From Solirubrobacterales bacterium (GTDB lineage Bacteria > Actinomycetota > Thermoleophilia > Solirubrobacterales > 70-9), in the NCBI GenBank assembly GCA_050697155.1, contig JBOGZD010000001.1, positions 3,670-67,669 of the forward strand: a stretch of DNA of 64,000 bases. The letters run 5' to 3'. This document shows, piece by piece, positions 18,889 to 59,608 of the stretch. Below the pieces are notes generated by a model that ran no database searches, had not been told where the DNA came from, and was given only the letters and a program-made list of their open reading frames with translations. Positions within the stretch are counted from its first letter, which is position 1, and every line of letters begins with the position of its first letter. The translations under genes were made by a program, and so were the position numbers.

Positions 18889-19848
18889 GTGGAAGGCTCC
18901 AGCGACGCCCAGATCGCGCGCACCCCCGGGGCGCAGGAGCAGCTCGCCAAGGAGTGGCTGCTGCGAATGATCGAGCGCACCCCCCTCGACGACGTCGGCG
19001 AGATCCCGATGGACTGGATCGCCGAGCAGGCCCCGCCGCTGATCGCCGACATCCTCGCGGCGCTCTCGGACCCGCTCGCCGCTCCGGATCGTCCGCTTGA
19101 GCCGGAGGAACGTGAGCGGGCGGCGAAGCTGGCGGGGCTGCGCGACGGCCCGGGGGCCGCGGAGCAGATCCCGCGCGACCTGGCGGCGCTCCAGGCGCTG
19201 CTGGTGGAGACGCTTCGCCGCGAGATCCCCGAGCGCCGCCAGGGTGACTTCGCCCGCGCGGTCGAGCGCCTCGCCGAGGTATTCGGGTCGATCCAGGGGG
19301 CGGTCGCGAGCTCACTGGTCGACGAGCGAACGGGGGGCGCGCGAGTCGATCGCCTCACCGGCCTGCCGGGACCGGTCCAGCTGGACGAGTGGATACGGAT
19401 CCTGCTCGCCGAGCAACGCCGCTACGAGCACGGCTTCGCGCTCGCGCTCGTCGACATCGACGGGCTCGCCAAGATCAACGAGGCCTACGGCCGCGACGCC
19501 GGCGATCGTCTGCTGACCGCGGTCGCGGGGGTGATCCGGAGGCAGATCCGCAACGTCGATCAGGCGTTCCGGCTCGAGGGCGGCGAGTTCCTCGTGCTCT
19601 GCCCTCACCAGGACGCGGCCGGCCTCGTGCCGATGGCGGAGCGGATCGCCAACCTGGTCGAGAGCTCCCAGCTCGCCGAGGGGCCGCGGATCGGGGTCGC
19701 GGTCGGCGTCGCTTCATGCCCCGAGAACGGCGAGGACGCGGAGGCGCTGATCGAGGTCGCGCAACAGGCGACCTACGACGCGAAGGCGGCGGGGCGGCGG
19801 GTCGGCACCGGGCCGGGTGGGCCCGAGCCGGTTCTGCAAGATCAGTAA
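18889..19848 (+). CDS. GGDEF-domain protein with degenerate active site (EGGEF)
   Basis: GGDEF fold recognisable (RLTGLPG ... LALVDIDGLAKINEAYGRDAGDRLL ... AFRLEGGEFLVL ... AQQATYDAKAAGRR). The signature reads EGGEF, and other conserved positions are substituted. Confidence 0.75.
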   Translation: MEGSSDAQIARTPGAQEQLAKEWLLRMIERTPLDDVGEIPMDWIAEQAPPLIADILAALSDPLAAPDRPLEPEERERAAKLAGLRDGPGAAEQIPRDLAALQALLVETLRREIPERRQGDFARAVERLAEVFGSIQGAVASSLVDERTGGARVDRLTGLPGPVQLDEWIRILLAEQRRYEHGFALALVDIDGLAKINEAYGRDAGDRLLTAVAGVIRRQIRNVDQAFRLEGGEFLVLCPHQDAAGLVPMAERIANLVESSQLAEGPRIGVAVGVASCPENGEDAEALIEVAQQATYDAKAAGRRVGTGPGGPEPVLQDQ

Positions 19849-21216: not shown

Positions 21217-22617
21217 ATGATCCGGCGGCCGTCGCGAGCCATGATCAGTGGGGGCTTCGCCTTGATCGCCGCCGCGGTAGTCGTCGGGGTCCTGCGCAAT
21301 CCGTTCGCCACGTGGGACCTTTCCCTGCTCGCGATCCTGCTAGCGCTGTCGATCGTCAGCGATCTGTTGAGGATTGAGGTTCCTGCCTATCGGGTCTTCC
21401 TCTCGGCGAGCTTCCTTTCGATCGTCACCGCCGCGGTCTTTCTCGGTGGGCCGCCGGCGATGTTCATCGGCGTGGCGACGATCCTGTCCGTCTGGCTGAG
21501 GGAGCGCTATCGCCTCGACTACCTGCTGATCAACCTCGTCACCTACGCCTGGTTCCCGCTGATCGCGGGGATCGGGTTCCACGAGGCGATCCAGGCGGGT
21601 GATATCGCGAACACGGCCGCGAGCTTCTATCTCCTGGTTTTCGCCGTCTTCGTCTTCGCGCTCGTCGTCGACTTCACCGCGATCGCCGGGTACACCTGCT
21701 GGGAGGAGGGCAGCCGGTTTACGACCAAGGTGCGACGGGCCCTGGTGCCGGTCCTGCCCTCGGAGCTGGCCTCGGCGCTGCTCACGGTCGCCATCGCGGT
21801 TGGCTACGTCGCGTTCGGGCTCGGCGCGCTGACCATGTTCGCCATCGTGGTGCTGGTCTTCCAGTACCTCGTCCGCGAGCTGCTCGTTTCCCAGCGGCGC
21901 GCTGACGAGCTGGAGCTGCGCGCCAGACAGCTCGCCGGGTTCCAGGTCGCCCTGTTGAGCGCGCTCTTGCGAACGCTGGACCTGCGCGACCGGATGACCG
22001 CCCGCCACAGCGCCGCGGTCGCCCGCTACTCGCGCGAGATCGCAGTCAAGGCGGGGCTCTCACGCGAGGAGCAGGAGCTCGTCCACACCGCGGGGCTCCT
22101 GCACGACATCGGCAAGTTCGTGCTCCCGGACGCGATCCTCAAGGCGACTCGACGCCAGCTCACCGACGAGGAATGGGACGAGATCCGCAAGCACCCCTAC
22201 GAGGGCGCTCGGATCGTCTCCCAGATTGACGGCTACCAGCCGATCGGGGAGATCATCCTCGCCCACCACGAGAAGGTCGACGGGACCGGCTACCCGCGCG
22301 GACTGCGGGGGGACGACATCCCGCTGCTCGCCCGGGTGATCGCCGTCGCCGATACCTACGACGTGATGACGGCCCGCGACAGCTACCGCGAGCCGGTCAG
22401 CTCATACGAGGCGATGATCGAGATGCGCCGGGTCGCCGGCAGTCAGCTCGATCAGCGCTTCGTCGACGCCTTCGCCGAGCTGCTCGAGGGCAAGGACCTC
22501 GCCTACAAGCACGGCGAGGACGCCGACTTCGAGCAAGAGCTCGCGCTCGACAAGCGGATCACGGACTATGTCGCGGCTGGGAGCGCCGCACCGTCGGGCC
22601 CCGAGACGGAGCGCTGA
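21217..22617 (+). CDS. Membrane-bound HD-GYP domain protein (c-di-GMP phosphodiesterase type)
   Basis: About 220 aa of polytopic N-terminus, then HSAAVARYS ... LLHDIGK ... HHEKVDGTGYPRGL ... IAVADTYDVMT. The HD and GYP motifs are intact. Confidence 0.9.
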   Translation: MIRRPSRAMISGGFALIAAAVVVGVLRNPFATWDLSLLAILLALSIVSDLLRIEVPAYRVFLSASFLSIVTAAVFLGGPPAMFIGVATILSVWLRERYRLDYLLINLVTYAWFPLIAGIGFHEAIQAGDIANTAASFYLLVFAVFVFALVVDFTAIAGYTCWEEGSRFTTKVRRALVPVLPSELASALLTVAIAVGYVAFGLGALTMFAIVVLVFQYLVRELLVSQRRADELELRARQLAGFQVALLSALLRTLDLRDRMTARHSAAVARYSREIAVKAGLSREEQELVHTAGLLHDIGKFVLPDAILKATRRQLTDEEWDEIRKHPYEGARIVSQIDGYQPIGEIILAHHEKVDGTGYPRGLRGDDIPLLARVIAVADTYDVMTARDSYREPVSSYEAMIEMRRVAGSQLDQRFVDAFAELLEGKDLAYKHGEDADFEQELALDKRITDYVAAGSAAPSGPETER

Positions 22618-24125: not shown

Positions 24126-24149
24126 GCATCCGTTAATATCCCGCGCCGC

Positions 24150-24310
24150 CGAGTTCCCTGCGATTCGCGCGATCGGCATCGGTCGGCAAGGCGGGGGATC
24201 GGGGGACCCGAGGGCGGCGCTGCTCTTCGCCGCCAGGGGCGAATCGCGGCCTGTGCCCGCGTAGCGCCATCCGCCGGCGCGAGCCCGCCAGCTAACCCCG
24301 TAGGCGCCGA
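24150..24310 (+). promoter_or_regulatory. ydaO/yuaA-type (c-di-AMP) riboswitch
   Basis: Contains GCGAUUCGCG, GGGGGACCCGA, GGGGCGAAUCGCGG, GAGCCCGCCAGCUAACCCCGUAGGCG in the consensus order. It ends 3 nt before the ATG of an Rpf-like gene. Confidence 0.8.
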
Positions 24311-24313
24311 GCG

Positions 24314-25339
24314 ATGGGCTCCGCCAACCGAAAACAGCCTGGCCTGGCTCCACCATCCGTGGCGTTGGTTGCGCTGTGCGCGATCGCCCTCGCGGCCACT
24401 TTCTTCGCCGCCCGCTCCGGCGCTCAGAGCGTCGATGAGCTGAACTCCCGGATCGCCGGCGCCCGTGAGCAGGCCCAGGCCCTGGGCTCCGAGATCGACG
24501 CCGCCTCGGCGCAACTCGCCGCCACGCAGGAGCAGGCGATCGCGGCCGCGGAGCGCGAGGCGCAGCTCAGCGCAGTGCTCGAGCGGGGGTTGGAGCGCGA
24601 GCGCCGGCTGGAGGCCGCGGTGGCCGTCGCCGAGTCGGAGCTGCGGGAGGCGCGGGCGCGGCTCCGCCGCGCGCTCGTCGTGCTCGCGGACCGGCTGGTC
24701 GCGATCTACAAGAGCAACATGCCCGACGCGACCACCCTGCTGCTCGACTCCGAGGGCTTCGACGACCTCGCCACCCGGGCCGAGTACCTGCAGCGGATCG
24801 AGGAGGCAGACGCGAGCCTCGCCGCCCGGGTGCGGATGCTGCGCGCGGCGGTCGCCGACCACCTCGCCGCGGTCGAGGACGCGGAGGCGCGCGCCGCGGC
24901 GTTCAACGAGCGGGTCGCGACCGCCCGCGACCAGATCGCGGCGGTACGAGCCGAGGCCGAGGCGCAGGCGGCGGCGCTCGCCGACGCGCGGGCCCGCCGC
25001 CAGGCGGCGCTGGAGGGCCTCCAGTCCCAGATCGGCGGCTGGACGGCCGAGGTCCAGCGGCTGGAGCGGATCTCCGCCCAGCAGGCGCAGGAGCAGGTCG
25101 CCGGCTGGGTCGGCGACTGGGCGATCCCGGAGTCGATCGTGATGTGCGAATCCGGCGGGAACTTCGACGCCGTCAACCCGTCCTCGGGCGCCGGCGGCGC
25201 CTACCAGATCCTGCCCTCGACCTGGGAGCTCTACGGCGGCGAGGGCGATCCCGAGGACGCCTCGCCCGAGCAGCAGCACCAGATCGCGAGCCAGATCTGG
25301 GCCGACTCGGGCAGCGGTGCCTGGGTCTGCGCCGGGTAG
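24314..25339 (+). CDS. Secreted coiled-coil protein with C-terminal Rpf-type transglycosylase-like domain
   Basis: Signal peptide, about 230 aa of Ala/Glu/Arg-rich coiled coil, then IVMCESGGNFDAVNPSSGAGGAYQILPSTWELYGG ... GSGAWVCAG. Confidence 0.85.
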   Translation: MGSANRKQPGLAPPSVALVALCAIALAATFFAARSGAQSVDELNSRIAGAREQAQALGSEIDAASAQLAATQEQAIAAAEREAQLSAVLERGLERERRLEAAVAVAESELREARARLRRALVVLADRLVAIYKSNMPDATTLLLDSEGFDDLATRAEYLQRIEEADASLAARVRMLRAAVADHLAAVEDAEARAAAFNERVATARDQIAAVRAEAEAQAAALADARARRQAALEGLQSQIGGWTAEVQRLERISAQQAQEQVAGWVGDWAIPESIVMCESGGNFDAVNPSSGAGGAYQILPSTWELYGGEGDPEDASPEQQHQIASQIWADSGSGAWVCAG

Positions 25340-38971: not shown

Positions 38972-39760
38972 TCACTGAAAAGGCGTCACGGCTCGCGTCC
39001 GGCGCGCGTCTCCCTGCTGGGAACCGCCCTGCGACGGGCGGGGGGGTCGAGGGCCGCGAGCTCGCGAGCCGAAGGCGAGGAGGCGGAGGCAGACCATGGC
39101 GACCATCCCGCCGCCGACCATGATCCAGCCCGCGACCTCCAGGCCCTCCTCGACGGCCACCCGAACCGGCGCCAGCGACGCGGCTTCGCCGGCCCCCGGG
39201 TCTGGCGTGAGCGCCGTGCCGAGGTCGACCGCGACCGCGACCGCCAACAGCGCGAGCCCGAGCCGCATCACCTGTGCCGCGCGGGGAGCCGCCTCGCGTG
39301 AGAGCACCCAGACGGTCAGAAAGACGAACACGTAAGCGGGCGCGAAGACGGCCACCTCGATGTTGTCGATACCGATCCGGTCGCCGATCCGTTCGTGCAA
39401 GCGCACCAGGTCGTCCATCGAAAGGAAGGTCAGGGTCGCCGCCAGGATCCAGAACCACGCCCGACGAGCCGGAATGATCAGCGCGTGCAGCGCCGCGACG
39501 AGGGCAGCGGCAAAGGTGGCGACCACGGTGAGCCAGTTGTTGAAGCTGATCTCGAGGGCGGCGTTCAGGCCGAAGACGTCATCGTCGAACACGTAGTGGT
39601 TGACGATCGAGCCGACCACGACGGCGCCCGCGCCGACGAATGCCAGCCAAACCGTGATCCGCAGAAGCCGGTCGCCGATCGATTCCGTATCGAGCGTGCC
39701 GCCTTCGAAGTCGCCGCCGGGCCGAGCCCAAGCGCCAGGGTCCAACCTCGGTCTGTTCAT
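38972..39760 (-). CDS. Polytopic membrane protein, unknown family (paralog B)
   Basis: Paralog of 36982..37638 (see that entry). ATG at 39760 preferred over 39772. Confidence 0.6.
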   Translation of the reverse strand: MNRPRLDPGAWARPGGDFEGGTLDTESIGDRLLRITVWLAFVGAGAVVVGSIVNHYVFDDDVFGLNAALEISFNNWLTVVATFAAALVAALHALIIPARRAWFWILAATLTFLSMDDLVRLHERIGDRIGIDNIEVAVFAPAYVFVFLTVWVLSREAAPRAAQVMRLGLALLAVAVAVDLGTALTPDPGAGEAASLAPVRVAVEEGLEVAGWIMVGGGMVAMVCLRLLAFGSRARGPRPPRPSQGGSQQGDARRTRAVTPFQ

Positions 39761-40025
39761 GGTCGCGCGCACCCTCTTCCCGCTATGTCGGCAGCGTCGA
39801 GGGGCTCCTTGAAGCGGTACGTTGACGCGAACCCTTGTGCCACTCGCCCTCCCATACCTGATTTAGCGTACCGCCGGCGCCCCGCTCCACCACCGGCGCG
39901 GGCCCCTCTGGGCGGATCTCTGCCGGCCACTCGAGCCGATGCGGATCTGCTGCAAGAACCGTGCCGGTCGACGCGCACGGCCGCCAGTCGCCAAACTACG
40001 CGGGCGGGCCTGGGCCCGCCGGAAT

Positions 40026-46291: not shown

Positions 46292-47299
46292 ATGCGGGGC
46301 CCTGGGGTTGAGAGCGCGCGACGGATCGCGGTCGGCCGTCGCTTGCCGTCCGGCCGGCCGACAAGGTTCGGAACCTCCGGCGACTTCACCGGAGGGGTCG
46401 GGCCGAACATCGAGCCCCGTGCCATTCGCGGTTACTACATCGATCTGCGGTCCAAGGCTCCGGCGCCGGGGTGGCCTCCGGACTGGTATACCGCCCCGCC
46501 GCGGAACTATGTCTGGATCACGCAATGGGGGCTCGCCTTCCACGAGCACCATCTCGAGGACGGGGACGAGGGGTGGTTGCAGGCCGCGCTTGCGGTCGGC
46601 GATCACCTGCTGGAGCTCCAGGAGCCCGAGGGGCGCCTGGTGGGCGGCTGGGTCCACCGTTTCCCCTACAAGCACACCTATCACCTCCCGCCGCCGTGGC
46701 TCTCCGGGATGGCTCAGGGCCAAGGCGCGAGCCTACTGGTTCGGCTGTACAGCGCGACCGGCGACGAGCGCTACGCGGAGGCCGCGATCCGCGCCCTGGA
46801 GCCAATGCGCCACTCGACACTCGACGGAGGCGTAGCCGGGGATCTCGGCGGCGGGTTCTTTCCCCAGGAGTATCCGACCAACCCGCCCGCGCACGTGCTC
46901 AACGGCGGCATCTTCGCGCTCTGGGGCTGTTACGACGCCGCCCTTGCCCTCGGCGACGACCTGGGCCGACAGCTCGCGGCCGAAGGGATCGCGACCCTCG
47001 CCGAGTCGCTGCCCAGGTGGGACACCGGGTACTGGTCCCGCTATGACCTCTTCCCGCACCCGCTCGCACACCTCGCCACCCCCATGTACCACCGCCTCCA
47101 CACCGACCAGCTGCGGGCGATGGCGTTGATCGACACGAATCCCGAGTTCAGCAGGACCGCTGAGCGGTTCGATGGCTACGCGCGCTCCCGCGTCAACGTC
47201 GGACATGCCTTTGCGCGCAAGGTGCTCTTCCGGCTCGCCGTCCCCCGCAACCGCTGGCTCGCCTTCCGAACGCCGTGGACGCGACGCTCGGGTCGATGA
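46292..47299 (+). CDS. D-glucuronyl C5-epimerase C-terminal-domain-like protein
   Basis: Blocks YVWITQWGLAFHEHHL, PPWLSGMAQGQGASLLVRLYSATGDERY and HVLNGGIFALWGCYD match my memory of the GLCE C-terminal domain (WxSAMAQGQAxSxLxRAY, LNGFxxxLxGLYD). Confidence 0.65.
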   Translation: MRGPGVESARRIAVGRRLPSGRPTRFGTSGDFTGGVGPNIEPRAIRGYYIDLRSKAPAPGWPPDWYTAPPRNYVWITQWGLAFHEHHLEDGDEGWLQAALAVGDHLLELQEPEGRLVGGWVHRFPYKHTYHLPPPWLSGMAQGQGASLLVRLYSATGDERYAEAAIRALEPMRHSTLDGGVAGDLGGGFFPQEYPTNPPAHVLNGGIFALWGCYDAALALGDDLGRQLAAEGIATLAESLPRWDTGYWSRYDLFPHPLAHLATPMYHRLHTDQLRAMALIDTNPEFSRTAERFDGYARSRVNVGHAFARKVLFRLAVPRNRWLAFRTPWTRRSGR

Positions 47300-49591: not shown

Positions 49592-50497
49592 TCAGTCGAG
49601 CCAAGCGTCGAGATCGATGCCGAGCAGAGCGCGTAGCTCCCCAACCTGCTCGGCGATCAGTGGGCGGAGTGGCTCGATGACGGCTGGGGCAACGGGCGGT
49701 CGCTCCTCGAACCGCGTGTTCCATCGCCTGAGCACCGCTCCCCCGCGACGGCGCCACTCCTGCGAGCTCACGGCGTGCATCATCCGGCGAAATGGCTGGG
49801 GCGGGCGGCCGATGAGGCGGCTCATCGCCCGGCTCCTGGGTCGCTTGTTCGGGTTGACCACCTCGAAGGCAGGCGAGAAACTCGAGTCCACGCCGAGAAC
49901 CGCGCACGTGTCGCGGAAGGCGCCCGCGGTGTCGTCGCGGAATCGGTCGTAGACGATCGCGTGGACCCGCTCGCGGCCGAACAGGTCAAGGTAGCGGCGG
50001 AGCTGCTCTCCGTAGCGAACCGCGGAGCGATAGGAGCGCGGTGGGAATCCGGGCGGCGTGCCCGCCCGCTCGCGCTCATCATCGAGCGCCAGCGCGCGCT
50101 CGAAGTCGGGTTCCGGCTCAAGCCCTACGAAGACGAATTGCGAATGCAGCGAAGGCAGCATCTCGACCGGGTTGCGCAGCATGACCAGGATGTCCGCCTC
50201 CGGGCAGAACTCCTTGATCTCCCTCGCCGCGGTCGACGAGTACAGGTACCAGACCGAGGCCTCGCCGCGCCTGCGCCTGCCCTCGAGCCCCTCGAAGTAG
50301 CCCAGGTACTCGTCCCTGGTCGGCGGCCGTGCACCGGGCTTGACCCACATCCGCGGATACAGGTCGGTGGCGAAATGGTGGCTCTCCTTGTGCGGGCACA
50401 TCCCGATCTCGGGGTGCTGGCCGAGGAAGTCGGCCATCGCGGTCGTCCCGCATTTCGGCGCTCCGATGAGCAAGAAATCAGGGCCGACGGGCGTCAT
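49592..50497 (-). CDS. PAPS-dependent sulfotransferase (Sulfotransfer_1-like)
   Basis: 5'-PSB loop FLLIGAPKCGTTAM and 3'-PB region LVMLRNPVEMLPSLHS. ATG at 50497 preferred: the first 13 codons after the track start at 50584 are A/T-rich at third positions. Confidence 0.75.
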   Translation of the reverse strand: MTPVGPDFLLIGAPKCGTTAMADFLGQHPEIGMCPHKESHHFATDLYPRMWVKPGARPPTRDEYLGYFEGLEGRRRRGEASVWYLYSSTAAREIKEFCPEADILVMLRNPVEMLPSLHSQFVFVGLEPEPDFERALALDDERERAGTPPGFPPRSYRSAVRYGEQLRRYLDLFGRERVHAIVYDRFRDDTAGAFRDTCAVLGVDSSFSPAFEVVNPNKRPRSRAMSRLIGRPPQPFRRMMHAVSSQEWRRRGGAVLRRWNTRFEERPPVAPAVIEPLRPLIAEQVGELRALLGIDLDAWLD

Positions 50498-50562
50498 CGC
50501 CACCAGCGTAGTGATCGCCAGCGCGTCGGAGGCGCTCAGGGAGGGATCGGCTGCTTCACCGC

Positions 50563-51579
50563 CTAACGGATCAGATCCGGGCATCGGCTGTCCTCCGCCA
50601 AGCGCAGATCGGCCGCCTCGCGATCGACGAACAGCGGGTCCGCGTGGACGTTGTCGATCGCCTCGAAACCGATGGCTGGGCTCTGGACACCGCCCGACTC
50701 CAGGCTCCGCGCGCCGCCGAAGACGCAGTTGCTTCGGACGAGGTTCCCGGTCCCCTCACGACCGTCCGGCCAAAACGATTCGACGTTGAAGCGGAGGTTC
50801 GAGTTCGTGATCACGTTGTCCTCCACCAGGTTGTCCTCGGAGACCTCGCCATCCTCGCCCGAGAACAGGATCCCTTGTCCGTTGCCGTCGATCACGTTCC
50901 CGGTGATCACCGAACCGTCGGCGTCCGGATAGAGCTGGACCCCGCGGTCCGCGTTCGAGTAGATCCAGTTGCCGCGGATCACGGTCCGGTCGGCGTGGGC
51001 GACGTAGATGCCGTGATCGTGGTTGGTGGCCGGGAGGCGGCCGCAGTCATGGATGCGATTGCGTTCGATCACCGTGCCAACCGCGTCGCCGTAGTCGTCG
51101 TCGCCGAGCACGAAGCAGATCGCCGTGTGGTCATTGGTGACGTCGTTGCCGCGAAAACGGACCGCGTCGCCGTTCACGGTCGGGCTCGGGAGCCCGCGCG
51201 TGTTGCGACCGTTGAGGGTCAGGTTCTCGATCGTCACCGCGTCGCCTCCCTCCCTGATCCAGAGCCGGCCTTCGAGCGTCGCCCGCTCTCCCGGATAGCT
51301 GCTCAGGGTCACGCCGCGGGCGGAGATCGCGATGTCGTCCTCGGAGCGGTGGACGCCATCGCGCAGGCAGGCCGTCTGCTGCGGAGCGAGCGCGGCGACG
51401 AAGTCGTCAACCGAGCCGCCTGGCTTCGCCACCACATCGCAGACGAGGTTGCTGGATCCCATCGGCGCCGACGCTTCATCCGGGTCATCGCCCCATGAGA
51501 TCAGGGCGGCCGCCGCGCCGGCAGCGATCAGCGCGGCGAACGCAACCAGGTACGCGAGCCCACCACGCGGCACGTTCAT
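50563..51579 (-). CDS. Secreted right-handed parallel beta-helix protein, paralog 1 (BH1)
   Basis: Signal peptide from ATG 51579. Periodic N-x-I/V-x-x-N coils. Conserved core HDCGRLPATNHDHGIYVAHADRTVIRGNWIYSNADRGVQLYPDADGS. Confidence 0.65.
   Translation of the reverse strand: MNVPRGGLAYLVAFAALIAAGAAAALISWGDDPDEASAPMGSSNLVCDVVAKPGGSVDDFVAALAPQQTACLRDGVHRSEDDIAISARGVTLSSYPGERATLEGRLWIREGGDAVTIENLTLNGRNTRGLPSPTVNGDAVRFRGNDVTNDHTAICFVLGDDDYGDAVGTVIERNRIHDCGRLPATNHDHGIYVAHADRTVIRGNWIYSNADRGVQLYPDADGSVITGNVIDGNGQGILFSGEDGEVSEDNLVEDNVITNSNLRFNVESFWPDGREGTGNLVRSNCVFGGARSLESGGVQSPAIGFEAIDNVHADPLFVDREAADLRLAEDSRCPDLIR
50879..51108. repeat. 230-bp segment identical to 51904..52133
   Basis: Compared base by base by eye; offset 1025 bp. 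It lies inside BH1 and encodes the conserved NHDHGIY core. Confidence 0.9.
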
Positions 51580-51587
51580 GTTGGAGG

Positions 51588-52577
51588 CTAGCGTTGCAGC
51601 AGCCGGCTGCAGGGGCTGCGATCGCGGAGGCGGAAATCCGCCCCGTTGCGATCGTAATAGTGGGGATTGGCAATGACGTTGCCGAACGCCGAGTACCCAA
51701 GCGCGGGGGTCTCCAGCCCGCCATCCTGATCGCCTCTCGCACCACCGAACAAGCAGTTCCGCCGCACCACGTTGTCCGTCCCGATCGGGCCTTGCCAATG
51801 GTCCTCGACGTTGTGCCGGAGGATCGAGTTGGTAATCGCGTTGCGGGCGACCAGGTTGCGGTCAGAGGAGAGATCGCCGGAGCCCGCGAAGAGGACCCCC
51901 TCGCCGTTGCCGTCGATCACGTTCCCGGTGATCACCGAACCGTCGGCGTCCGGATAGAGCTGGACCCCGCGGTCCGCGTTCGAGTAGATCCAGTTGCCGC
52001 GGATCACGGTCCGGTCGGCGTGGGCGACGTAGATGCCGTGATCGTGGTTGGTGGCCGGGAGGCGGCCGCAGTCATGGATGCGATTGCGTTCGATCACCGT
52101 GCCAACCGCGTCGCCGTAGTCGTCGTCGCCGAGGATCACGCAGCTCGATGAGAGATTGCGGATCCGATTGCCCTCGAGCCGCACGCGGTTCGCCGTCACG
52201 GTAGGGCTCGGCAGGCCCCGAGCGTTGGCGCCGTTCAGGTTCAGGTTGCGGATCGAGACCCGATCGGCCCGCCGTGTGATCCAGATGCGACCGACGAGAC
52301 GGGCCGGCTTTCTCCGGCGAAGACTGGTCAGCGCCACTCGCGGCCGCGTGAACTTGATGTCTCGCCGGTTGGCGCGATAGAGCCCGGGCGCGAGACACCC
52401 CGTTTCGCCGCGCCGGAGCGAATCCACGAACGCGCGGGGGCTCGCACCCACCGTCGCCACGCGGTCGCACCGCCCCTTCCCGGGGTCGGTTGCTGGCGCC
52501 GCGTCAGGCGACGCGAGGCCGGCTAACGTCGCGACCGCGAACGCGGCGCGCACGGATCTGAGCCACGGAGACTGCAC
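51588..52577 (-). CDS. Secreted right-handed parallel beta-helix protein, paralog 2 (BH2)
   Basis: GTG start and signal peptide (AAFAVATLAGLASPDAA). Same core as BH1. Confidence 0.65.
   Translation of the reverse strand: MQSPWLRSVRAAFAVATLAGLASPDAAPATDPGKGRCDRVATVGASPRAFVDSLRRGETGCLAPGLYRANRRDIKFTRPRVALTSLRRRKPARLVGRIWITRRADRVSIRNLNLNGANARGLPSPTVTANRVRLEGNRIRNLSSSCVILGDDDYGDAVGTVIERNRIHDCGRLPATNHDHGIYVAHADRTVIRGNWIYSNADRGVQLYPDADGSVITGNVIDGNGEGVLFAGSGDLSSDRNLVARNAITNSILRHNVEDHWQGPIGTDNVVRRNCLFGGARGDQDGGLETPALGYSAFGNVIANPHYYDRNGADFRLRDRSPCSRLLQR
51904..52133. repeat. 230-bp segment identical to 50879..51108
   Basis: Second copy, inside BH2. Confidence 0.9.
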
Positions 52578-52619
52578 CCGAGCGGGGCAGCCTACAGCCG
52601 CCCGCTGGGCGGGGCGCCG

Positions 52620-54563
52620 TCAGCCGACCACCGTGATGCCAACGGGACGCGACCGGCCCGCGCCCTTGACCTTGGCGCGGAAGTACACGTTTCCGGCGTC
52701 CCCCACCAGACGCGGGGTGACCTCGAAACGGCGCCGAGACACGCGATCGACCGTGAAGCGCTTCCAACGGCCGTCACGCCATCTGTGGATCACTGCCTTC
52801 GATCCGGCGCGGCGGGCGGCACGCGACGACTTGATCCTGCCGCTGAGCTCGACGTACCCGCCAGGCTGGATCGTGGACGTGCTGCTCTTGAACACGAGAC
52901 GCTTGCCGCTCCCACCGCCGCCGGGCTTGGATGTCGGGCCGGACAGCTTGACCTTGAACCCACGGCTGGCGGCGGTCTGGTCGACGTTGCCGGCGGCGTC
53001 ACGCGCGCGGACTGCGAAGTTGTGGGCGCCCGGCCCAAGGGCTGCGTAGCTGTGCGGGCTGGTGCAGGCTGTCCAAGCCGCCCCGTCCAGACGGCACTCG
53101 AAGCTGGACTCGGACTCCGAGGAGGCAAATCCGAACGTTGCGACATCGGTCGTGATCGTCCCCGACGGCCCCGAGGTGATCGTCGTCTCTGGCGGTGAAC
53201 TGTCGGCGGGCGGGTCCTCGGTGGGCGGATCCTCAGCCGGCGGGGGATCGGGAAGATCGACGACGAAGACGGCGCTCGCCGGAGACTGGTCGACGGTGCC
53301 GGCGGCGTCGGTCGCCCGAACCTCGAACGTGTGCTCGCCCGGTGCCAGCGCCGAGTAGGACTTGAGGCTCGTGCACGCTGCCCAAGTAGCGCCGTCGAGG
53401 CGGCATTCGAAGCTCGAGTCGGGCTCCGAGGAGGAGAAGCCGAAGCTGGCTGTATCAGTGGCGATCGTGCCCGAGGGGCCGGAGGTGATGGTCGTCTGCG
53501 GGGCCGTGGTGGCGGGTGGCTCCTCGGTCGGCGGCGGGCCGGTATCAGACAGCATTCGCCCGCAGCTCGAGTCCGGGTCGACGGTGTAGTCACCGCGCGC
53601 CGGATCGACGAAGCTCGGCTTCGCGACCACGTTCGAGGACGCCGTGAAACTCGCCTTCTCTATGCCGCTGTCGTCGGAGTCGCCTCGATACGAGCTGCCT
53701 GAGGTCCAGACACAGTTGTTGCGCGCGACGTTTCCGACGCCCCGTGGCCCCTGCCAGTGGTCCTCGATGTTGTACCGGATGGTCGAATTCACGATCACGT
53801 TGTTTTCGACCACGTTGTCGTCAGACGACGAGCTCGTGCCCCCGGAGAACAGGACGCCCTGGCCGTTGGCGTCGATGACGTTTCCGACGACGAGGCTGCC
53901 GTCCGCGTCCGGGTAGAGCTGGACCCCCCGGTCCGCGTTCGCGTAGATCCAGTTGCCACGGATCACGGTCCGGTCGGCGTGGGCGACGTAGATGCCGTGA
54001 TCGTGGTTGGTGGCGGGAAGCCTGCCGCAGTGGTGAATGCGGTTGCCCTCGATCAGGGTGCGGTCGGCGCGACCGTAGGAGCCATGACCGAGGTTGAAGC
54101 AGATCCCCGTGTGTGCGTTGGTGACGTCGTTACCGCGGAAGACCGTGTCGTGTGCGTGCACGGTCGGGCTGGGCATCCCGGTGGGGTTGCGGCCATCGAG
54201 GTCCAGGTTCTCGACCCTGACCCCGTCGGCTCCCGGGGCCACCCAGATCCGGCCGACGATCTTCGCGCGCTCGCCCGGGTAGCTCGTGAGCACGATCTCG
54301 CGCGTCGTGATCTTGATCAGGTCGTTGAGGGCGAATACGCCCGAGCGGAAGCATCCAGTCTGCCCCGGCGACAGCGACCCGGCGAGCTTGACGGCGCTTT
54401 GAAAGGGGGCCGCGGCGGCTCCTGTGGCACTGTCGGAGCCGGTCGGGGACGCATAGCGGTCACATGACACCGCGGCTGCCGTTTCCTGCGCGCGAACCGA
54501 GGCGGTCGCAAGACCGATGACGAGCAGGATTGCGATGAGCATCGACAGGCCGCGCCTTGACAT
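52620..54563 (-). CDS. Secreted beta-helix protein, paralog 3 (BH3), with two Ig-like repeats and a basic C-terminal domain
   Basis: GGAG lies 6 nt before the ATG. Signal peptide, a beta-helix core (HHCGRLPATNHDHGIYVAHADRTVIRGNWIYANADRGVQLYPDADGS), two ~80-aa repeats, and an Arg/Lys-rich C-terminal ~95 aa. Confidence 0.75.
   Translation of the reverse strand: MSRRGLSMLIAILLVIGLATASVRAQETAAAVSCDRYASPTGSDSATGAAAAPFQSAVKLAGSLSPGQTGCFRSGVFALNDLIKITTREIVLTSYPGERAKIVGRIWVAPGADGVRVENLDLDGRNPTGMPSPTVHAHDTVFRGNDVTNAHTGICFNLGHGSYGRADRTLIEGNRIHHCGRLPATNHDHGIYVAHADRTVIRGNWIYANADRGVQLYPDADGSLVVGNVIDANGQGVLFSGGTSSSSDDNVVENNVIVNSTIRYNIEDHWQGPRGVGNVARNNCVWTSGSSYRGDSDDSGIEKASFTASSNVVAKPSFVDPARGDYTVDPDSSCGRMLSDTGPPPTEEPPATTAPQTTITSGPSGTIATDTASFGFSSSEPDSSFECRLDGATWAACTSLKSYSALAPGEHTFEVRATDAAGTVDQSPASAVFVVDLPDPPPAEDPPTEDPPADSSPPETTITSGPSGTITTDVATFGFASSESESSFECRLDGAAWTACTSPHSYAALGPGAHNFAVRARDAAGNVDQTAASRGFKVKLSGPTSKPGGGGSGKRLVFKSSTSTIQPGGYVELSGRIKSSRAARRAGSKAVIHRWRDGRWKRFTVDRVSRRRFEVTPRLVGDAGNVYFRAKVKGAGRSRPVGITVVG
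52947..53495 (-). repeat. Tandem duplication encoding two Ig-like modules within BH3
   Basis: Residues 357-436 (53256..53495) and 460-539 (52947..53186) are TTITSGPSGTIxTDxAxFGFxSSExxSSFECRLDGAxWxACTSxxSYxALxPGxHxFxVRAxDAAGxVDQ. They are separated by a Pro/Asp/Glu linker. Confidence 0.8.
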
Positions 54564-54574
54564 CCGGGTCTCCT

Positions 54575-54652
54575 TTGGTGGCTGAGCCGTCTCGCGAACG
54601 AGACCTCTGGCTTTGCGTCCCCACCTCGCGGCGGGTTTGCCTTTTCAATGGA
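54575..54652 (-). promoter_or_regulatory. c-di-GMP-I (GEMM-I) riboswitch candidate
   Basis: The minus-strand RNA is UUGAAAAGGCAAACCCGCCGCGAGGUGGGGACGCAAAGCCAGAGGUCUCGUUCGCGAGACGGCUCAGCCACC. GGCAAACC, a 6-bp stem with a GNRA loop (GCGA), GGGACGCAAAGCC and a bulged second hairpin parallel the Vc2 aptamer order. The SD AAGGAG follows immediately. Confidence 0.7.
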
Positions 54653-54858
54653 GCCCGATGAACGGGGCCCCTCTTGTCGCGAGTCCTATCGGGCCGCTCG
54701 CGCGCGGCGGTGAGCTCGGGTCGCCGCGCTGGACGTTGGTTTGATGCAGGAATTCGCCCAGAACCTGCAGCGAAACCACCCACAACCTGCAACCGCGCGG
54801 TTGTCGCGCGGCGCAGCCGGGCCGGGTAACCGGCGGCCCGATAGCGACCTGGTGGCGG

Positions 54859-56118
54859 TCAGCGCCTGACCTTGACCCGCACCGGCCGCGAGCGGCCGAT
54901 GCCCGGCACCTTCGCGCGTAGGCGGAGCCTGCCGGCCGACGAGCGCGCGCGCTTGCGGATCGTGAACCTGTTGCGCGTGTTGACCCGAGCGCGCGCGAAG
55001 CGCTTCCATCGGCCTCGCTCGCGCACCTGGATCACGGCCCGCCTGCCGCCTCCCGAGACGGCGCCCTCGAGCTCGCCCCGCAGCCTGAAGCGCTGCTGCG
55101 GTTGGACCCGGCGGCGATTCGCCGAGAGCTTGACCTGAGCACGCGACGGTGCCCCGCCGAGACAGGGACTGCTCGCCTGGAGGTTGTAATCGGGCTTCGA
55201 GGCGTCGACGTAGTACGGGTCCGCGACCCGGTTGTCGACCGCGACGAATCCGTCCTGCGGCGATTCGATCCCGCCGTCGCCATCGTCGCGAGCACCGCCC
55301 GAGACGCAGTTGGCACGCGCCACGTTGCCGTAACCGGATTCACCCTGCCAGTGGGACTCGATGTTGTAGCGGATGGTCGAGTTCGTGATCACGTTCTTCT
55401 CGACCACGTTGTTGTCAGACGCGGAGTCGTCGCCGCCGGCGAAGAGCACCCCCTGGCCGTTGCCGTCGATCACGTTGCCGGTCACCAGCGATCCGTCGGC
55501 GTCGGGGTAGAACTGGATGCCGCGATCGGCGTTGCCGTAGATCCAGTTGCCTCGGATCACCGTGTTACGCGCCTCGGCGAGGTAGATCCCGTGGTCATGG
55601 TTGGTCGCCGGCAGGTCGCCACAATCGTGGATTCGGTTGCCCTCGATGAGCACGCCGTCCGGAGGCGGGGAATCCTCGTAGGCGTCGACGTGCACGCAGA
55701 TCGCGGTGTGGTGGTTGGTGATGTCGTTGTTTCGCAGGACCACCCGGTCGGCGTAGATGATCGGACCGAGCAGGCCCTCCGGGTTGCGGCCGTCGAGGTT
55801 CAGGTTCTCGATCACGGCGTCGTCGGCCGTCTCGTTGAGCCGGAGCCGGCCCTGGAGCGTCGCGAGCTCGCCCGGATAGGACGTGAGCCGGATCGCCGAG
55901 GTGTTCACGATGAACTGGTCCGCGACGTAGGTTCCGGCGCGCACACACCCGGTCTGTCCGGGGGCAAGGTCGTCCAGCAGCTCCTGGACGCTGTCGCCCG
56001 AGGTCGCCACCAGGTCGCAACCGGCGTCCTGCCCAAGCGCGCCGGCGGGTGCCATCCCACCCGCCGCGAGCGCGAGCGCAACAGTCGCGACCAATACCGA
56101 CATGTGCCTGAACGGCAC
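54859..56118 (-). CDS. Secreted beta-helix protein, paralog 4 (BH4), with basic C-terminal domain
   Basis: GTG at 56118 lies 6 nt after AAGGAGA (alternative ATG at 56103). Signal peptide, core HDCGDLPATNHDHGIYLAEARNTVIRGNWIYGNADRGIQFYPDADGS. The C-terminus is homologous to that of BH3 (GRWKRF ... LRAKVPGIGRSRPV). Confidence 0.7.
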   Translation of the reverse strand: MPFRHMSVLVATVALALAAGGMAPAGALGQDAGCDLVATSGDSVQELLDDLAPGQTGCVRAGTYVADQFIVNTSAIRLTSYPGELATLQGRLRLNETADDAVIENLNLDGRNPEGLLGPIIYADRVVLRNNDITNHHTAICVHVDAYEDSPPPDGVLIEGNRIHDCGDLPATNHDHGIYLAEARNTVIRGNWIYGNADRGIQFYPDADGSLVTGNVIDGNGQGVLFAGGDDSASDNNVVEKNVITNSTIRYNIESHWQGESGYGNVARANCVSGGARDDGDGGIESPQDGFVAVDNRVADPYYVDASKPDYNLQASSPCLGGAPSRAQVKLSANRRRVQPQQRFRLRGELEGAVSGGGRRAVIQVRERGRWKRFARARVNTRNRFTIRKRARSSAGRLRLRAKVPGIGRSRPVRVKVRR

Positions 56119-57595: not shown

Positions 57596-58573
57596 GTGAC
57601 CGGCGCCGCGCTGTCGGAGGACGCCCAGCACGCGGCGGGATTCTACGTTGCTACCGTGGCGCCGCGAGTGGTGGGCGCGGATCGATCCGAGGGGCAGAGG
57701 CCGATCGTCATCGTCGGGACCGGTCGTTGCGGCTCGACCCTCTTGCACCGGGTGCTCGCCCGCCACGACGATCTCGGCTGGATCTCGAGTTGGAACGAGG
57801 TGTTTCCGGGCCAGCCGTGGCTCGCCGCCTTCTCCCGTCTCTACGAGTGGCGTCTCCCTGCTGGGGTCAAGGAGTCGAAGCCCTTTCCGAAGCCGTTCGA
57901 GGCATATCGGTTCTGGGAGCACTACCTCCCCGGGTTCTCGCGGCGCGATCGACCGCCCAGCGCCGAGGATGTCGACGTGGCGGGGATCGGACCCGTCCGC
58001 GACGCCACGGCAACTGTCCTCGACCATCACGGCCGCGATCGGTTGCTGGTGAAGGTGACGGGTTGGTCGCGCATCGCGTATTTCGACCGCATCTACCCGG
58101 ATGCCCGGTTCGTGTCGCTGCGGCGCGACCCACGTTCGGTCGTCAGCTCGTGGATCAAGGCGGGTTGGCTCGACGTCACGAGCCCCCCCGAGAGCGCGAG
58201 CTGGCAGTGGGGCCACGTTCCGCCGCCCTACCTCGAGCTCTGGCGCGAGCTCGGCGGCGGTCCCGCGCTCTCGGTTGCGCTCAAGATCCGGCTCGATCTC
58301 GACGACCTCGCCCGGAACGCGGCGCTTTTTCCCGACCGCTGCCACGAGCTTCGGTACGAGGAGCTGATCGAACAGCCGCGGCTGAGCCTGCGAGCGCTGT
58401 GTGACTTCGCCGGACTGCCGTGGACACGGTCGTTCGCCGACGTCATCGGCTCGGTCGGGTTCCACGACCGATCCGAGAAGTGGCAGCGATACCTCGGCAC
58501 CGACGACGCGAAGCGCGTGCTCGCGTTCATCCGGCGAAGCGAAGCCGTGGGGGTCACCGACCGCGTGCGCTGA
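57596..58573 (+). CDS. PAPS-dependent sulfotransferase (Sulfotransfer_3-like)
   Basis: 5'-PSB IVIVGTGRCGSTLLHRVL and 3'-PB FVSLRRDPRSVVSSW. The start is uncertain: GTG at 57596 is the first in-frame start clear of the divergent GT4. Confidence 0.7.
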   Translation: MTGAALSEDAQHAAGFYVATVAPRVVGADRSEGQRPIVIVGTGRCGSTLLHRVLARHDDLGWISSWNEVFPGQPWLAAFSRLYEWRLPAGVKESKPFPKPFEAYRFWEHYLPGFSRRDRPPSAEDVDVAGIGPVRDATATVLDHHGRDRLLVKVTGWSRIAYFDRIYPDARFVSLRRDPRSVVSSWIKAGWLDVTSPPESASWQWGHVPPPYLELWRELGGGPALSVALKIRLDLDDLARNAALFPDRCHELRYEELIEQPRLSLRALCDFAGLPWTRSFADVIGSVGFHDRSEKWQRYLGTDDAKRVLAFIRRSEAVGVTDRVR

Positions 58574-58603: not shown

Positions 58604-59608
58604 ATGGCATCCGTACACCTGCTCTCCGCGGCGCGCGAGGGAGCCGGAGCGCACCCCAAGGCACGCTTGGATCTCGAGCAGATGCGGGCCGCGGCCCGCG
58701 CCGACCGACTGGGCCTCCACGACGTCGTCGAGGACCCGCGCAGGGCCGACCTGATCCTGTTCGTTGAGACGTCGGTGGCCGCCGGGCACTACTTCGAGCT
58801 CGTCAGGGCTCACCCCATCTATCGGGAGTTCACATCGAAGAGCTATCTGTTCTCCGCGACCGACAAGGTGATCCCGTTCCTGCCCGGCGTCTACGCATCG
58901 ATCGAACGACGCTGGTACTGGCCGTCCTGGACGCGGTCGGGTCACTACGTCGGGGTCAAGGAGGAGGGCGCCCTGCGGTACGACCCCGACCATCGCCCCT
59001 CGCGGCTGTTCTCGTTCGTCGGCAGGGCCAACATGCACCGGGTACGCGAGCGCATCATGCGGCTGCGCCACCCTGACGCGATCCTGATCGACACCCAGGC
59101 GGAAGCGCTCGCGGACCGGCAAGGGGAATCCCTCCCGCTGCCCCCCGAGGAGTTCGTCGCGCGCTATGTGCGTGCGATCAACGACTGCGCCTTCGTGCTC
59201 TGTCCGCGAGGCGGAGGCGCCGCGAGCTTCAGGCTGTTCGAGACGATGATGCTCGGCCGCGTCCCGGTGATCATCTCGGACCAGTGGGTTCCGCCGGTCG
59301 GCCCCGACTGGGATCGCGTCAGCGTCCGGGTCGGCGAACGGCGCATCGAGGAGATCCCGCGACTGCTGGAGGCGCACGCTGCGGACGCCCGGGCAATGGG
59401 CGAGGCGGCACGAGCGACGTGGCTGGAGTGGTTCGCCCCGGACACCTCCTTCCACCGCATCGTGGACTGGTGCCTCGAGCTGGCGCGCTCAGCGCCGCGG
59501 CGGAGCGGGGTGCGCCGGTACGCACCCCACCTGCAGATGCTCCGCCCCTATCACTCGGCCCGCTGGGTCGCCAAGCGGATCGGGCGCGGCGGCCCGGCCG
59601 CGCTCTAG
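58604..59608 (+). CDS. Exostosin-family (GT47-like) glycosyltransferase
   Basis: RLFSFVGRANMHRVRERI ... CAFVLCPRGGGAASFRLFETMMLGRVPVIISDQWVPP, the exostosin C-terminal signature. Confidence 0.7.
   Translation: MASVHLLSAAREGAGAHPKARLDLEQMRAAARADRLGLHDVVEDPRRADLILFVETSVAAGHYFELVRAHPIYREFTSKSYLFSATDKVIPFLPGVYASIERRWYWPSWTRSGHYVGVKEEGALRYDPDHRPSRLFSFVGRANMHRVRERIMRLRHPDAILIDTQAEALADRQGESLPLPPEEFVARYVRAINDCAFVLCPRGGGAASFRLFETMMLGRVPVIISDQWVPPVGPDWDRVSVRVGERRIEEIPRLLEAHAADARAMGEAARATWLEWFAPDTSFHRIVDWCLELARSAPRRSGVRRYAPHLQMLRPYHSARWVAKRIGRGGPAAL

Follow-up and report, generated by a model that had tools for sequence, protein, structure and literature searches.

Among the described class-I c-di-GMP (GEMM-I) riboswitches, the closest point of comparison for the RNA analysed here is Vc2 of Vibrio cholerae (Rfam RF01051, GEMM-I), in which the ligand is contacted by G20, A47 and C92 and in which the C44-G83 interhelical pair is universally conserved (PMC4744006). 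The consensus of a second Rfam family, RF03167 (c-di-GMP-I-GGC), is one core column apart, GACGC-A-AAgCc in RF01051 corresponding to GACGC-G-AAgCc in RF03167, and this column (model column 37) is that of Vc2 A47. The 'GGC' label, as we take it, denotes a G at the A47 equivalent. A further GEMM-I element, Cd1 of the Clostridioides difficile flgB operon, is an OFF switch tied to the sigma-28 regulon.

In Actinomycetota, c-di-GMP also acts through a protein, the RsiG-(c-di-GMP)-sigma-WhiG switch being an anti-sigma mechanism at the level of transcription initiation; the two papers that describe it make no mention of riboswitches (PMC7005675, PMC8325347). Thermoleophilia are reported to possess WhiG together with a single-motif RsiG that binds c-di-GMP (PMC8325347). 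The WhiG/FliA promoter consensus has been given as TAAA...GCCGATAA (PMC8325347) and as T(A/C)AA or CTCA, N16-17, GCCGA (PMC12871210).

The RNA described here lies in a 64 kb window (the whole stretch of DNA that was analysed, 64,000 nucleotides) from a Solirubrobacterales (Thermoleophilia) bacterium, an uncultured soil actinobacterium, where it precedes an operon located inside an exopolysaccharide (EPS) locus. With Vc2 it has in common the three-helix junction, the GGCAAACC and GACGCAAAGCC core strings, a GNRA-capped first hairpin, equivalents of the G20/A47/C92 triad and of the C44-G83 pair, and the location in a 5' leader. It differs from Vc2 in that P1b and P2 are much shorter, the loop is GCGA rather than GAAA, and P1 has only 3-4 bp and runs straight into a helix containing the Shine-Dalgarno (SD) sequence. 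Host and target differ as well, being a Thermoleophilia actinobacterium and an operon of beta-helix enzymes in an EPS locus, respectively. RF03167 is its best-scoring model and shares its compact helix lengths and a near-identical consensus; however, the window has an A at the A47 position, where G defines the variant, and the base before C92 is A as opposed to the consensus G. With the RsiG-WhiG switch the locus shares control by c-di-GMP, the phylum, and a promoter consensus, TAAA/CTCA...GCCGATAA, that is matched upstream of the window leader and of many related aptamers; a coupling between that protein switch and the riboswitch is one that we infer. While Cd1 terminates transcription and lies upstream of a sigma-28 gene, the riboswitch in the window seems itself to be transcribed from a sigma-28-type promoter, with control predicted at the SD. 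What is new here is the host and the gene context of a known RNA switch class, not the mechanism.

A class-I c-di-GMP aptamer upstream of a beta-helix gene

The intergenic leader of 295 nt (54564-54858, minus strand) extends from the stop of an upstream beta-helix gene (54859) to the ATG at 54563. When the complete 64 kb window was scanned with Rfam cmscan at gathering thresholds, two matches were obtained, a c-di-AMP riboswitch described below and RF03167 at 54573-54650 on the minus strand (78 bases; 63.0 bits, with the gathering score at 59; E 1.6e-12), the latter aligned over the full model (positions 1-80 of 80). A full-length match at or above a curated gathering score places the site in the c-di-GMP-I clan (Rfam CL00126), a second family of which also exceeds its own gathering score here, scoring lower than RF03167. 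The segment 54573-54650 is a genuine class-I c-di-GMP riboswitch aptamer.

The original prediction, which had named a c-di-GMP-I riboswitch candidate at this position and suggested a covariance-model search as a check, is thus borne out, and the sequence that it quoted is present exactly on the minus strand. Its class assignment stands as well, with one correction: the highest score belongs to the GGC variant family RF03167 and not to RF01051. All of the elements that it listed are found: the core string GGCAAACC (54641-54634), the GNRA hairpin at 54635-54620 (P1b, CCCGCC-GCGA-GGUGGG, with strands 54635-54630 and 54625-54620 and GCGA as the GNRA loop), GGGACGCAAAGCC, and the second, bulged hairpin P2 (54612-54580). 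P1 is formed by 54649-54646 with 54577-54574. The gene context that it described, i.e. three beta-helix proteins and a sulfotransferase downstream with short or overlapping junctions, together with an intact HD-GYP protein and a GGDEF-type protein elsewhere in the window, likewise holds, as detailed further below.

We built our own covariance model, R1, from 35 related aptamers. R1 scores 83.6 bits at the aptamer, which is its sole match in the window; a second aptamer within the window was considered and rejected, R1 giving one site only. Across the 35 relatives the GEMM-I structure is paired in 94% of the cells, as compared with 30-45% in slid controls, and 72 double-change cells, distributed over 9 pairs, contrast with 17.7 in shuffles, a count exceeded in none of 500 shuffles. 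Note that the search pattern behind the 35 relatives fixed part of the core while leaving free P1, most of P2 and the G83 and C92 columns; the latter two are invariant in 35 of 35 relatives despite lying outside the pattern. In the window, only one of the P1 pairs is flagged as non-standard, and P2 carries two A·C mismatches, at one of which 15 of the 35 relatives are mismatched as well.

The aptamer is conserved together with the gene that follows it. Homologues were searched for with the N-terminal domain alone, since a whole-protein query is swamped by proteins with Ig-like repeats. In all six of the closest homologues (55-66% identity; our loci L005, L006, L131, L130, L132 and L133), a GEMM-I aptamer lies directly upstream of the start codon, while none precedes the homologues at 46-54% identity (L001-3, L007-9, L134 and L135). 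A whole-protein scan of genome contigs returned only three distant Thermoleophilaceae homologues, all lacking the riboswitch. The aptamer-positive loci lie in similar EPS clusters, with genes for a C5-epimerase-like protein, polysaccharide deacetylase, GT4, Wzy, Wzz, a flippase and a sulfotransferase. Three independent short-read (Logan) contigs among the homologous loci (L130, L132 and L133, positions 1-65) begin inside the aptamer core, which suggests that these genomes contain the near-identical core more than once and that the assembly graph breaks at it. Families that recur among 86 ORFs downstream of unrelated pattern matches are subtilases, camelysin-like peptidases and sortases, along with a few beta-helix proteins, a secreted or surface repertoire that is typical of GEMM-I.

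The question of the ligand turns on a few positions. Alignment to the model consensus makes G54641, A54614 and C54578 the canonical G20/A47/C92 triad, with C54617 and G54587 as the equivalents of C44 and G83; the columns of the latter two are both invariant among the 35 relatives, in keeping with the interhelical pair. The 3' strand of P1 is preceded by 'AC'. Since RF03167 is the best Rfam model for the window, L006 and L131, one could argue that the RNA is a specificity variant, either a member of the GGC class or a sensor of another dinucleotide such as 3'3'-cGAMP, rather than of c-di-GMP. Against this speaks the variant-defining column itself, which is A in the window (54614), in every homologous aptamer and in 120 of the 120 loci returned by a metagenome pattern scan in which A or G was allowed. 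Also, RF01051 is the best model for L005 (51.2 bits; gathering score 35) and for the three 5'-truncated orthologous aptamers of L133 (53.9 bits), L130 (42.6 bits) and L132 (36.8 bits). As for cGAMP, aptamers of the cGAMP-type, GEMM-Ib, have an A at position 20. The window has G54641 at this position and so lacks the signature of a c-AMP-GMP (GEMM-Ib) sensor, which argues against cGAMP specificity. We consider a specificity variant very improbable: judged by its binding site, the window RNA is not a GGC variant, RF03167 probably scores best only because its short P1b and P2 geometry resembles that of this high-GC lineage, and the ligand is, with high probability given these positions, c-di-GMP.

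Expression platform and direction of the switch

The SD, GGAG (54573-54570, minus strand), directly follows the aptamer and is separated by a spacer from the ATG (54563-54561), just as the original prediction had placed it. SD sequences (GGAG or GGAGG) begin 2-4 nt past the 3' strand of P1 in 7 of 7 homologous leaders. On the other side of the aptamer, adjoining the 5' side of P1, lies the anti-SD GGGCUCC, which pairs with GGAG-a-CCC, that is, with SD plus spacer, in MFE and constrained folds. This pairing had been predicted correctly, although with coordinates that need amending, the anti-SD being located at 54650-54656 (minus strand) and not at 54654-54660. The accompanying suggestion of translational control fits as well, given that the pairing has a counterpart in three other full-length homologous leaders despite their differing sequences.

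L005, L006, L131 and L116 each have a counterpart of the anti-SD, and the duplexes have energies between -7.8 and -15.0 kcal/mol. While GGGCUCC faces GGAGaCCC in the window, the anti-SD GGGACUCC faces SD plus spacer GGAGAUCC in L005, GUGGUCCUC faces GAGGACUGC in L006, and CAGUcCUC faces GAGuACUG in L131. When the 5' hairpin described below is forbidden, constrained folds produce a continuous helix of anti-SD:SD plus P1 in all four full leaders, and in the window the AUG is buried too, via CAUC:GAUG. In a swap test with five leaders, native anti-SD/SD duplexes averaged -12.1 kcal/mol against -9.6 kcal/mol for swapped ones, with 9 of 120 permutations being equal or better, a result that is suggestive of anti-SD:SD specificity beyond the shared CUCC/GGAG core. 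The test was confined to five leaders, as the pattern used for the 3' end of the aptamer missed about one third of the loci.

A competing partner for the anti-SD is found further 5': the anti-anti-SD GGGGCCC (54665-54671, minus strand) is predicted to form a 7-bp hairpin with the anti-SD in a proposed SD-free (ON) conformer. The isolated 5' fragment of the window folds into this GGGGCCC:GGGCUCC hairpin at -14.7 kcal/mol; for L005 and L006 a comparable 5' hairpin is predicted, for L131 only a weak one. In the swap test with the same number of leaders (five), the anti-anti-SD hairpin was not significant (35 of 120 permutations were as good), and by plain MFE the window leader folds no better than its shuffles (z = -1.29). 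Under a constraint on the aptamer core, the energies of the SD-paired and the SD-free fold are -41.3 and -41.4 kcal/mol in the window, -33.4 and -35.9 in L005, -43.7 and -37.3 in L006, and -32.7 and -34.0 in L131. In these folding models the two states are nearly isoenergetic, such that the binding energy of the ligand could decide between them. The CCGAT motif was also considered as an RNA pairing partner and was rejected: CCCGAU can pair with AUCGGG in the window, whereas L005 lacks this pairing.

These elements suggest the following mechanism. Without ligand, the early-transcribed GGGGCCC:GGGCUCC hairpin would hold the anti-SD, leaving the SD free and the operon translated. Upon binding at the three-helix junction through G20, A47 and C92, c-di-GMP would close P1, which would bring the anti-SD beside the SD and create one long helix over GGAG, the spacer and the AUG. 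This helix would block translation, making the element an OFF switch for three beta-helix proteins and a sulfotransferase. We regard a translational OFF riboswitch in front of a four-gene operon as the best overall explanation, with a probability of roughly 0.55. Its parts differ in firmness: that control is exerted at translation initiation is likely, while the OFF direction, which we infer from the geometry of the leader, is only somewhat favoured.

The same aptamer could instead work in the ON direction, if in the ligand-free RNA the SD region paired with the 5' strand of P2 (GGUCUC:GAGACC) or stayed in the long anti-SD helix, with ligand-driven folding of P2 and the junction setting the SD free. 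ON-type GEMM-I riboswitches such as Vc1 exist (PMC4744006), GAGACC of the window is a perfect complement of the P2 strand GGUCUC, and the unconstrained MFE of L005 does pair the SD region with the P2 strand. This SD:P2 complementarity is, however, weak in L006 (about 4 bp by hand), whereas all of the full leaders have the anti-SD and the SD facing each other precisely on the two sides of P1. Since the ligand needs P1, and P1 sets the anti-SD opposite the SD, c-di-GMP should favour sequestration, and an ON switch is in our view unlikely. A different possibility is that the main effect of the aptamer is on transcription or on the fate of the mRNA, by Rho-dependent termination or by access of RNases to mRNA whose translation is blocked, and less on initiation as such, or that it is an inactive relic. 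Secondary effects on Rho or decay are indeed often seen with translational riboswitches, yet the SD abuts P1, there is no terminator-like element, a consensus scan of 54300-55100 having found no intrinsic terminator between the aptamer and the ORF, and a relic would hardly be expected to have all of its core nucleotides intact and to be kept in six independent homologous loci. We consider this improbable, and retain the translational OFF switch as the preferred reading.

A putative WhiG/FliA-type promoter upstream of the leader

Upstream of the aptamer lies a match to a WhiG/FliA (sigma-28)-type promoter (54686-54714, minus strand), consisting of CTCA (54714-54711), N17 and CCCGATAG (54693-54686). 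Matches were scored as a -35 of T(A/C)AA or CTCA, N16-17 and a -10 of GCCGA, with CGA fixed and at most one mismatch allowed (PMC12871210). These criteria are loose in this GC-rich window, where they produce 21 matches, mostly intragenic, and the match in the window taken alone is weak evidence for a promoter. The argument depends on enrichment across loci and on the presence of GCCGATAG at the equivalent position in L005, L006 and L131. Among high-GC aptamer loci, 20 of 74 upstream sense regions contain a match, compared with 1 of 74 in upstream antisense orientation, 0 of 67 (sense) and 2 of 67 (antisense) downstream, and a mean of 0.7 per 74 in mononucleotide shuffles of the upstream sense regions; among low-GC loci the figure for upstream sense is 1 of 41. 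Our own scoring of the promoter motif gave a similar enrichment. A scan of 54300-55100 for a sigma-70 promoter consensus found none.

The homologous leaders and many unrelated high-GC aptamer loci share one upstream order: CGTCCAG, about 12-22 nt, TAAA/TCAA/CTCA, N15-17 and GCCGAT(A/G)N, of which the two elements nearest the aptamer agree with the published WhiG/FliA consensus sequences. The motif TAAA/TCAA/CTCA, N15-17, GCCGATNN is seen in the window, L006, L131, L027, L035, L036, L071, L083, L106 and others. In the window, the conserved CGTCCAG element, recognised by its recurrence across loci, is at 54729-54735 (minus strand). In 22 of 52 loci, GTCCA precedes the CCGA core by 28-48 nt, where about 0.02 occurrences per locus would be expected, and CGTCCAG/GTCCA is found at two preferred offsets, in loci including L005, L006, L131, L025, L035, L045, L055, L073, L074, L086 and L116. 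Ten loci have a -10 whose end lies 15-16 nt before GGCAAACC, so that transcription there would begin with the first base of P1. Judging by the position of the WhiG/FliA-type match, transcription in the window probably starts near 54679, with both the aptamer and the 5' hairpin lying downstream of this point. As far as sequence can show, this speaks against a start site 3' of the motif, an outcome that the original prediction had listed as refuting.

Two further intergenic WhiG-type matches were observed in the window, both on the minus strand: TAAA-N16-GCCGATCT (2187-2214), right before the gene for an HDOD-HD-LuxR regulator (1075-2181), and TCAA-N16-GCCGACAT (39785-39812), 13 nt before the gene at 38972-39772. 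About 50 nt past the stop of the upstream beta-helix gene there is also a GC-rich hairpin, CCGCGCG-ACAAC-CGCGCGG (54793-54811, minus strand), followed by a U/G-rich stretch. It may act as a U-poor terminator between the upstream gene and the riboswitch transcript, and was not called in the scan for consensus terminators.

We found no paper that ties WhiG promoters to c-di-GMP riboswitches. Tentatively, and with more doubt than conviction, we propose that sigma-WhiG/FliA promoters drive the transcription of many c-di-GMP-I leaders among Thermoleophilia-like soil actinobacteria, and that one messenger thereby shuts genes for secreted lyases, proteases and sortases twice. In such a double lock, RsiG with c-di-GMP would sequester sigma-WhiG and act at transcription initiation, while the OFF riboswitch would act at translation.

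The presumed target operon and its exopolysaccharide locus

The first predicted target gene (52620-54563, minus strand) encodes a secreted right-handed beta-helix protein of 647 aa (Pfam Beta_helix 6.9e-12, NosD 6.9e-11) with a signal peptide, two Big_13-like Ig-like repeats and a basic C-terminal tail. By the ORF list and Pfam, it is followed on the same strand by two more beta-helix proteins (51588-52577 and about 50563-51579) and a sulfotransferase (49592-50584); the junctions of this presumed operon (49592-54563) are, in order, a 42-nt gap, a gap of about 9 nt and a 22-nt overlap. A sequence search of the 647-aa protein against the PDB gave no match, and fold comparison alone was informative. 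The AlphaFold (AF2) model of residues 28-345 (pLDDT 89.9, pTM 0.91) has as its best neighbours the PL9 pectate lyase Pel9A and a rhamnogalacturonan lyase (TM about 0.63), with PL6 alginate lyase, chondroitinase B, V. cholerae RbmB and the mannuronan C5-epimerases AlgE4 and AlgG as further neighbours. On the basis of this model, the beta-helix proteins are putative secreted lyase- or epimerase-like enzymes that act on an acidic polysaccharide.

RbmB, a biofilm-matrix lyase of V. cholerae, bears on the direction of the switch, its presence among the fold matches fitting repression at high c-di-GMP. By this analogy the OFF sign would be sensible if the enzymes degrade or remodel the matrix in the manner of RbmB: the cell would produce them when c-di-GMP is low and shut them off in the sessile, high-c-di-GMP state.

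The EPS locus around the operon encodes GT4 glycosyltransferases, a Wzx-type flippase, two Wzy_C proteins, a Wzz/BY-kinase and a priming sugar transferase, as well as a D-glucuronyl C5-epimerase-like protein (46292-47299, plus strand), an exostosin-like GT47 (58604-59608, plus strand), a second sulfotransferase (57596-58573, plus strand) and a fourth beta-helix gene just upstream. Between about 44000 and 59600 the window thus holds GT47, the C5-epimerase-like protein, two sulfotransferases and four beta-helix proteins, a gene set of the heparan-sulfate-like type, here in an actinobacterium. L006, L131 and L133 contain comparable sets. As was proposed originally, c-di-GMP may directly gate the remodelling of a putative sulfated glycan, the beta-helix proteins being lyase- or epimerase-like by fold only.

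Other parts of the window also point to cyclic dinucleotides. The HD-GYP protein (21217-22617, plus strand; HD_5 E 1.1e-37) has intact HD, HHE and GYP motifs. The GGDEF-domain protein (18889-19848, plus strand; PF00990 E 5.9e-29) carries the degenerate signature EGGEF in place of GG(D/E)EF and may be a catalytically inactive, receptor-type GGDEF. The second Rfam match in the window is a c-di-AMP (ydaO-type) riboswitch, RF00379, at 24137-24320 on the plus strand (38.5 bits against a gathering score of 38), directly upstream of a gene (24314-25339, plus strand) whose product has a C-terminal Rpf-like transglycosylase domain (PF06737, 7.6e-17). A c-di-AMP riboswitch in front of an Rpf-like transglycosylase is a classic actinobacterial pairing, which supports this marginal match.

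Taken as a whole, the locus adds a well-supported c-di-GMP riboswitch with its expression platform for a barely studied and mostly uncultured class of actinobacteria. For canonical aptamers of this lineage, the Rfam 'GGC variant' label can mislead. If the double lock proves true, it would be a coherent arrangement for the low-c-di-GMP (dispersal) state, one that we found described in no paper, and, should the promoter association hold, the locus would offer a testable case in which one second messenger acts on the same genes both via a protein anti-sigma factor and via an RNA. [quoted passage not shown]
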